This document shows, in pieces, positions 7,619 through 7,999 of a DNA stretch of 64,000 bases (position 1 is its first letter; each line of letters begins with the position of its first letter). A program made the translations under genes and the position numbers. This DNA comes from Raillietiella orientalis (taxonomy: Eukaryota): contig JAYWIR010000020.1 in assembly GCA_036172245.1 (NCBI GenBank), positions 248,001-312,000 of the forward strand, read 5' to 3'. The notes beneath the pieces were generated by a model that saw only the letters and a program-made list of their open reading frames with translations, ran no database searches and was not told the origin of the DNA.

Positions 7619-7999
7619 ATGTCTGGAAGTAGTGCTAGATCTCCGCTGCCTGTTCAGGCCAAAATGGACGACTTTTTATGCTCTCCACTGAAAGGAAAAC
7701 CTACAACAGAGGTACCAGGAATAACTATCACTCCACAGAAATTTCTTTTGAAAAGATCGGTTTGCAGCGCAGCTCAGCTTCTGAACATATACAAGATGTT
7801 CAGTGAAGAATTCTCAGACTTTTACAATTTCATAACTCAAAATGAGAACGTCAGTGAGGAAGATAGACTGCGGGAACAACTCCGTATTGCTTACGAGGCT
7901 TTAAGGAAATGGTGGTTATCGAGATTGCTGATTGCTAAGCAGTTAAACCAAAACCATTACATTGCACTCGAATACTTCCTGGGACTTGATTTGCTCTAG
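7619..7999 (+). CDS. Divergent BAF-like protein 2, intronless, 126 aa, with C-terminal extension
   Basis: DDFLCSPLKGKPTTEVPGI ~ BAF RDFVAEPMGEKPVGSLAGI; SAAQLLNIYKMF..DFYNFI ~ KAYVVLGQFLVL..LFREWL; AYEALRKW ~ CFGCLREW. Shares EVPG, SAAQL and the terminal LDLL with the 6566-6940 ORF. Confidence 0.85.
   Translation: MSGSSARSPLPVQAKMDDFLCSPLKGKPTTEVPGITITPQKFLLKRSVCSAAQLLNIYKMFSEEFSDFYNFITQNENVSEEDRLREQLRIAYEALRKWWLSRLLIAKQLNQNHYIALEYFLGLDLL

Follow-up and report, generated by a model that had tools for sequence, protein, structure and literature searches.

Three uninterrupted open reading frames (p1, p2 and p3) in the window, that is, the whole 64-kb stretch of DNA analysed in the present study, are a cluster of three long-diverged paralogues of BAF (BANF1), a protein usually encoded by a single, highly conserved gene. 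In each of the three proteins, the position of the last BAF tryptophan is followed by a tail of exactly 28 residues, most of which extends beyond the end of BAF itself. Herein, we propose that p1, p2 and p3 are BAF paralogues in which this inherited tail forms a C-terminal helical hairpin that would cap or rebuild the cleft at the dyad of the dimer, and that these proteins, probably with altered binding partners, most likely act as specialised BAF-like modulators. We put the probability of this reading at about one half.

Three divergent BAF paralogues at one locus

The first frame (p1) occupies 6566-6940 on the minus strand and encodes 124 aa, the second (p2) occupies 7619-7999 on the plus strand and encodes 126 aa, and the third (p3), which has a longer N-terminal extension, occupies 10330-10752 on the minus strand and encodes 140 aa. 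The orientation of p1 and p2 is head to head, with 678 bp separating their start codons, and that of p2 and p3 is tail to tail. On the basis of this layout, the 678-bp spacer between the head-to-head starts (6941-7618) could possibly serve as a shared p1/p2 promoter. A pyrimidine tract followed by AG lies immediately 5' of the p2 ATG and may represent a putative splice acceptor of a 5'-UTR intron. An ATTAAA hexamer on the plus strand (8001-8006), 2 nt past the p2 stop, is a possible poly(A) signal, and two ATTAAA hexamers are located on the minus strand (6525-6547), 19-41 nt downstream of the p1 stop; all of these are motif matches only. When the three-protein profile was run against all six-frame pieces, p1, p2 and p3 were the only copies in the window, and a tblastn search with library BAF proteins revealed no canonical BAF exon in the 64 kb. 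A search for direct and inverted repeats between 4000 and 13000 revealed no gene-flanking duplicated DNA. A 42-nt inverted repeat (11247-11340; 79% complementary, 10-nt loop) lies some 500 bp before the p3 start when read along the p3 strand.

Several lines of evidence connect these frames with each other and with BAF. First, the three proteins are homologous: p1 matches p2 with a tblastn E of approximately 1e-13, and p3 matches p1 and p2 with BLASTP E values of 1e-11 and 3e-6, respectively, in alignments that extend through the tail. Identity among the paralogues is 25-37% over the whole protein and 22-32% in the domain part (19/87 to 27/84 aligned positions). Second, p2 and p3 both match the Pfam family SAM_BAF (PF02961) above its gathering cut-off of 25, with 26.8 bits (E 7.4e-6) for p2 and 34.2 bits (E 3.7e-8) for p3, a result repeated on stop-to-stop frames. 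For p1, no SAM_BAF match was obtained in Pfam at E up to 1, and this protein is counted as a member of the BAF family only because it is homologous to p2 and p3. Third, when aligned with the 89-residue BAF chains in the PDB, the three-protein profile places the tryptophan on W84, with a weak E value (0.017); a PDB sequence search with p2 alone returned no BAF row, and BAF was reached only with the three-protein profile. In a search for feature-based look-alikes, the top three clusters for p2 were BAF (0.93-0.94), and the top rows for p1 were bacterial clusters with no name, BAF appearing only at rank 6 (score 0.86). The trio conserves the proline-glycine of the helix-hairpin-helix turn together with L/I46, F59, L81 and W84, and differs from BAF at the other end of the chain in having N-terminal extensions of about 10-30 residues.

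The same relationship was obtained from structural models. AlphaFold2 models of p2 (pLDDT 83.2, pTM 0.76) and p3 (pLDDT 79.7, pTM 0.74) were built on 4-sequence alignments only, and in Foldseek the top 8 rows were all BAF for both models, with TM-scores normalised to the target of 0.74-0.80 for p2 and 0.68-0.79 for p3. In a VIA-align structural comparison against 48,161 representatives, the p2 model matched BAF with Z 10.9 and an rmsd of 2.4 A over 87 aligned residues (the runner-up chain had Z 5.9), and the p3 model matched BAF chains with Z 9.3-10.3 and all others with Z of 4.0 or less. The BAF matches of both models had an rmsd of 2.0-2.4 A over 84-87 residues, and sequence identity to human BAF in these structural matches was 21-26%. 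Residues 11 to 103 of the p2 model correspond to residues 2 to 89 of the BAF chain, and residue 116 of the p3 model corresponds to BAF residue 89. As judged by these models, p2 and p3 have the BAF fold. The extra N-terminal segment of p3 (residues 1-34; 10651-10752, minus strand), which p1 and p2 do not have, is predicted to include a helix (model residues 8-17, pLDDT ~76-77), and residues 22-24 have a pLDDT below 50.

It might be argued that the three frames are decaying retrocopies or chance frames and that the tail has no function, as introns are absent from all three and none of the three sequences occurs in the protein collections searched. However, at 25-37% identity all of them keep open frames, a similar length, the BAF core pattern and a tail of equal length, and p2 and p3 give foldable models; moreover, only 38 ATG-started ORFs of at least 120 aa exist across the 64-kb window, which speaks against chance. 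We therefore regard this explanation as very unlikely.

The C-terminal tail

The original prediction was that exactly 28 residues follow the last BAF tryptophan in all three paralogues, and reading the ORFs from the Trp codon to the stop gave exactly this result. The segments at 6566-6655 (p1, minus strand), 7910-7999 (p2, plus strand, beginning at Trp98) and 10330-10419 (p3, minus strand, beginning at Trp112) each comprise the codon for this tryptophan, 28 further codons and a stop codon. The gapless alignment of the tails was reproduced using MAFFT, and R+4, L+11, Y+16, E+20 and L+25, numbered from the tryptophan, are among the invariant columns. The equivalence of this tryptophan to BAF W84, also proposed previously, is supported in agreement by the Pfam alignments, the profile-to-PDB alignment and the structural alignments. 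Similarly, the end of BAF falls, as had been claimed, at Trp+5, where BAF residue 89 aligns in both models. The remaining 23 tail residues (residues 104-126 in p2) have no counterpart in BAF.

To compare the tails, ungapped in-register BLOSUM62 scores were set against 20,000 shuffles per pair. The p1 and p2 tails scored 57 with 14/28 identical residues, a score reached by 0/20,000 shuffles; the p1 and p3 tails scored 29 with 7/28 identical residues (3/20,000 shuffles), and the p2 and p3 tails scored 21, also with 7/28 identical residues (10/20,000 shuffles). In the comparison of p1 with p2, no part of the protein is better conserved than the tail, with 14/28 identical residues compared with 27/84 in the domain, and the tail length has remained fixed at 28 although the domain part has diverged to 22-32% identity. 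Since the similarity of the tails is gapless and above that of shuffled sequences, and since the BLASTP alignments run into the tail, the tail predates the split of the three genes. The tail is, as far as sequence comparison indicates, common to p1, p2 and p3 by descent and inherited from a shared ancestor.

The tail had also been predicted to form a conserved helical hairpin, and this claim stands in part. The tail is helical with fair confidence and has the same layout in the two separately built models of p2 and p3, but the first helix merely prolongs the last BAF helix to approximately Trp+10. In the p2 model, a helix at residues 81-108 (to Trp+10) is followed by a helix at residues 111-120, and in the p3 model (numbered without the initial Met) a helix at residues 95-120 (to Trp+9) is followed by a helix at residues 124-133, so that the return helix has 10 residues in both models. 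The turn between the tail helices has 2-3 residues and is located at the N-Q-N-H, P-K-D-M or N-E-D-W positions. With regard to possible disorder, the AlphaFold2 monomers are predicted to be ordered and helical in the tail except for the last 6-9 residues, where the confidence is lower: the pLDDT values by block are 83 (residues 101-110), 77 (111-120) and 57 (121-126) in p2, and 86, 82 and 67 in the last three blocks of p3. Counted from the sequences, each tail of 28 residues contains 13-17 hydrophobic ones, which exceeds what one helix would need for a single packing face.

The lower pLDDT of the last 6-9 residues might also be expected if the end of the tail were a short linear motif (a leucine-rich export signal, for example, or some other ligand peptide) recruiting a partner from outside the fold. 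The hydrophobic-acidic ends of p1 and p2 do fit the class-1b export-signal pattern. However, the same loose patterns match many sites outside the tail in all three proteins, so that little weight can be given to these matches; p3 falls outside class 1b, and the invariant residues are spread across both helices and not clustered. We consider such a motif unlikely as the explanation of the tail.

A further candidate, which we rejected, is that the tail represents the remnant of a second BAF repeat. Proteins with BAF domains in tandem are known, and in a MAFFT alignment with such proteins the tail columns were matched to the N-terminal part of their second domain. However, the helices of the tail extend the final helix of the first domain without starting a new fold, comparison of the tails with their own BAF domains using hhalign gave a probability of 0.2% over 5 columns, and a Pfam search restricted to the tails returned 0 families even at E up to 10. 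This candidate is the most improbable of those considered, and we retain the hairpin as the preferred description of the tail.

Relatives carrying the tail were sought in several collections. When 1.84 billion representatives were searched exhaustively with the profile, 5 proteins were obtained at E of 0.001 or lower (P0001-P0005), a count that says nothing about BAF in general, as canonical BAFs score below the proteins listed when the divergent three-protein profile is used. The matches of P0001-P0005 all stop at profile positions 100-103 of 128, leaving the tail uncovered. These library relatives are tandem or N-terminally extended BAF proteins, none of which is tail-bearing, and where the BAF domain is terminal the chain ends 5-9 residues after the tryptophan. 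Three of the five, one each from sea star, fish and snail, are named 'uncharacterized protein'. The sea-star protein is P0002, which has approximately 110 residues before a single BAF domain and is the closest library relative of p3 (tblastn 3e-9); P0001, P0003 and P0005 have two or three tandem BAF domains. A word-indexed protein search, which requires shared 5-residue words, gave 13 word-sharing candidates for p2 and 360 for the three-sequence alignment, none of which gave a score, and none of the 594 pattern matches in metagenome contigs or the 161 in viral contigs was confirmed. Because the library includes annotated animal proteomes, among them the sources of the sea-star, fish and snail proteins, a close annotated orthologue would probably have appeared. 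Short intronless genes are, however, frequently missing from annotation, and the DNA covered by these searches was that of metagenome and viral contigs. A literature search, with subscription journals outside its reach, found no description of a BAF paralogue with a C-terminal extension.

The dyad cleft and a proposed role

Progeria mutations map to the lamin-binding interface of BAF. The original prediction placed the BAF C-terminus at the dimer interface, and this is in agreement with three reports (PMC6212729, PMC10099716, PMC12825308). According to the first, the Ig-fold of lamin A/C contacts V11, A12, P14, E83, A87 and F88 of both BAF monomers, and one arginine of lamin forms bonds with the backbone oxygens of F88 in each monomer (PMC6212729). 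The second places the L89 carboxylate of one monomer within salt-bridge distance of residue 16 of its partner (PMC10099716). In this literature, LEM proteins and lamins are assigned to opposite clefts at the BAF dimer interface. In addition, a study in Drosophila describes BAF with a C-terminal YFP or Flag tag as non-phosphorylatable, dominant-negative and moved to centromeric heterochromatin, and presents an AlphaFold3 model in which the NHK-1 kinase sits in the cleft made by the BAF C-terminal helices (PMC12825308).

The residues of the three paralogues at these and other BAF surfaces were read from sequence alignments against the numbering of PMC2173821 and PMC6212729, in which the N-terminal alignment, placing K6 and the phosphosites, is weak. 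In the order p1, p2 and p3, the DNA-binding residue G25 is retained in all three, the buried DNA-binding residue L46 is I, L and L, and two further DNA-binding residues, K6 and R75, are G, K and S (K6, in the weakly aligned region) and M, R and E (R75). K72, which we take to be a DNA-binding residue as well, is S, E and K. In human BAF, both G25 and G27 of the helix-hairpin-helix turn G25-I26-G27 are required for DNA binding (PMC2173821), and this turn is only partly kept in the trio: G25 and I/V26 are present, and G27 is replaced by K, T and S. In the LEM-binding valley, formed by V51, K53 and K54 in BAF (PMC2173821), the alignment reads R/K/K in p1, M/S/E in p2 and N/E/E in p3, so that the emerin-binding K53 is K, S and E. 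Thus K6, K53, K72 and R75 are each present in at most one paralogue. Among the lamin contacts, A12 is S, C and K, P14 is N, P and S, and F88 is arginine in all three. Residue 16, near the C-terminus of the partner, is K, K and R. Sites 3 and 4 of VRK phosphorylation have no Ser or Thr in any of the three, in a region where the alignment is weak. As read from these alignments, each of the surfaces that canonical BAF uses for DNA, LEM, lamin and the kinase is retained only in part, which is a divergent BAF-like pattern.

The position at the centre of the BAF dimer bears on how the tail might pack. G47, a glycine buried there (PMC2173821, PMC6212729), is T, N and S in p1, p2 and p3, and canonical dimerisation itself is therefore uncertain. 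This substitution would suit a monomeric BAF-fold protein, an option already raised in the original prediction, in which the hairpin is folded back on the same subunit and shields the hydrophobic surface facing the partner, so that dimerisation is blocked. Such an arrangement would also fit with an extension that begins at the dyad-proximal C-terminus, and with AlphaFold2 monomer models that are fairly confident with no partner present. However, L/I46 is retained, the hydrophobicity of the tail goes beyond a single packing face, human BAF with the G47E substitution still yields a dimer peak in vitro (PMC2173821), and one library BAF domain has Asp at position 47, so that the loss of glycine is not decisive. 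A two-copy homodimer prediction for p2 gave a score of 0.01 against a mark of 0.32, was run with no controls, and counts neither for nor against a dimer. We consider the monomeric form improbable, and the capped or rebuilt dyad cleft remains our preferred reading.

The capped-cleft reading may be described as follows. The tail would first prolong the last BAF helix by approximately 5 residues past the normal end of BAF and would then turn, laying a short, very hydrophobic helix back to form the helical hairpin. If dimerisation is BAF-like, both hairpins would sit on the C-terminal dyad cleft, because the C-terminal helices of BAF meet at the dyad. The hairpins might then cap or rebuild this cleft, and the canonical docking surface for lamin and the kinase would be lost. 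A four-helix contact might possibly be added between the subunits, which could stabilise the dimer or set the pairing of the paralogues. By analogy, the trio most likely acts as BAF-like modulators akin to BAF-L and not as standard DNA-bridging BAF. BAF-L (BANF2) is also a divergent BAF paralogue and provides the best analogy for such a modulator, being likened here by description, with no orthology implied. To our knowledge, BAF-L is similar to BAF in length and lacks a C-terminal extension. A review attributes to BAF-L weak DNA binding, heterodimer formation with BAF and expression mainly in testis (PMC13443024).

A more elaborate form of the dimeric arrangement would be a separate dimer system, in which p1 and p2 are co-expressed from the 678-bp promoter and paired through a four-helix bundle of hairpins, with the lamin/VRK cleft permanently closed. 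This is a speculative extension, and we regard it as somewhat less likely than the monomer. If true, it would provide a BAF variant that is neither released by mitotic phosphorylation nor tethered to lamin, with a possible use in germ-line chromatin compaction or in the trapping of foreign DNA. For the preferred reading, a real and conserved C-terminal cap would be a natural probe of the function of the BAF cleft and would reveal how a dimer under tight constraint can acquire a new specificity once its gene is duplicated.

Other features of the window

The window is eukaryotic and gene-poor, with 6 ORFs of at least 200 aa in 64 kb and a CpG observed/expected ratio of approximately 0.8, a value that speaks against a vertebrate origin, and a search of the entire window against Rfam gave 0 matches. 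A sharp change in composition is observed at approximately 48000: the first 48 kb have a GC content of 0.40-0.58 and a CpG observed/expected ratio of 0.73-0.98, and the last 16 kb have a GC content of 0.31-0.40 and a ratio of 0.50-0.63. On the minus strand, a 210-aa ATG ORF with no Pfam match is located at 33648-34280, and its C-terminal end may resemble the N-terminal part of LINE-type reverse-transcriptase proteins. On the plus strand, a stop-to-stop frame at 40053-40436 contains an RIIa domain (PF02197, 28.7 bits, E 1e-6), which is the dimerisation/docking motif of PKA regulatory subunits; RIIa proteins are often sperm-flagellar. The longest ORF of the window (43705-46161, plus strand; 818 aa, low complexity, no Pfam match) lies approximately 3.3 kb downstream of the RIIa frame, and the two may be exons of one gene. 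Finally, an exon-sized frame on the minus strand (49332-49802) matches EXS (PF03124) with 53.9 bits and E 2.3e-14 over profile positions 28-122 of 330, and probably belongs to an XPR1/SYG1-like gene with several exons.
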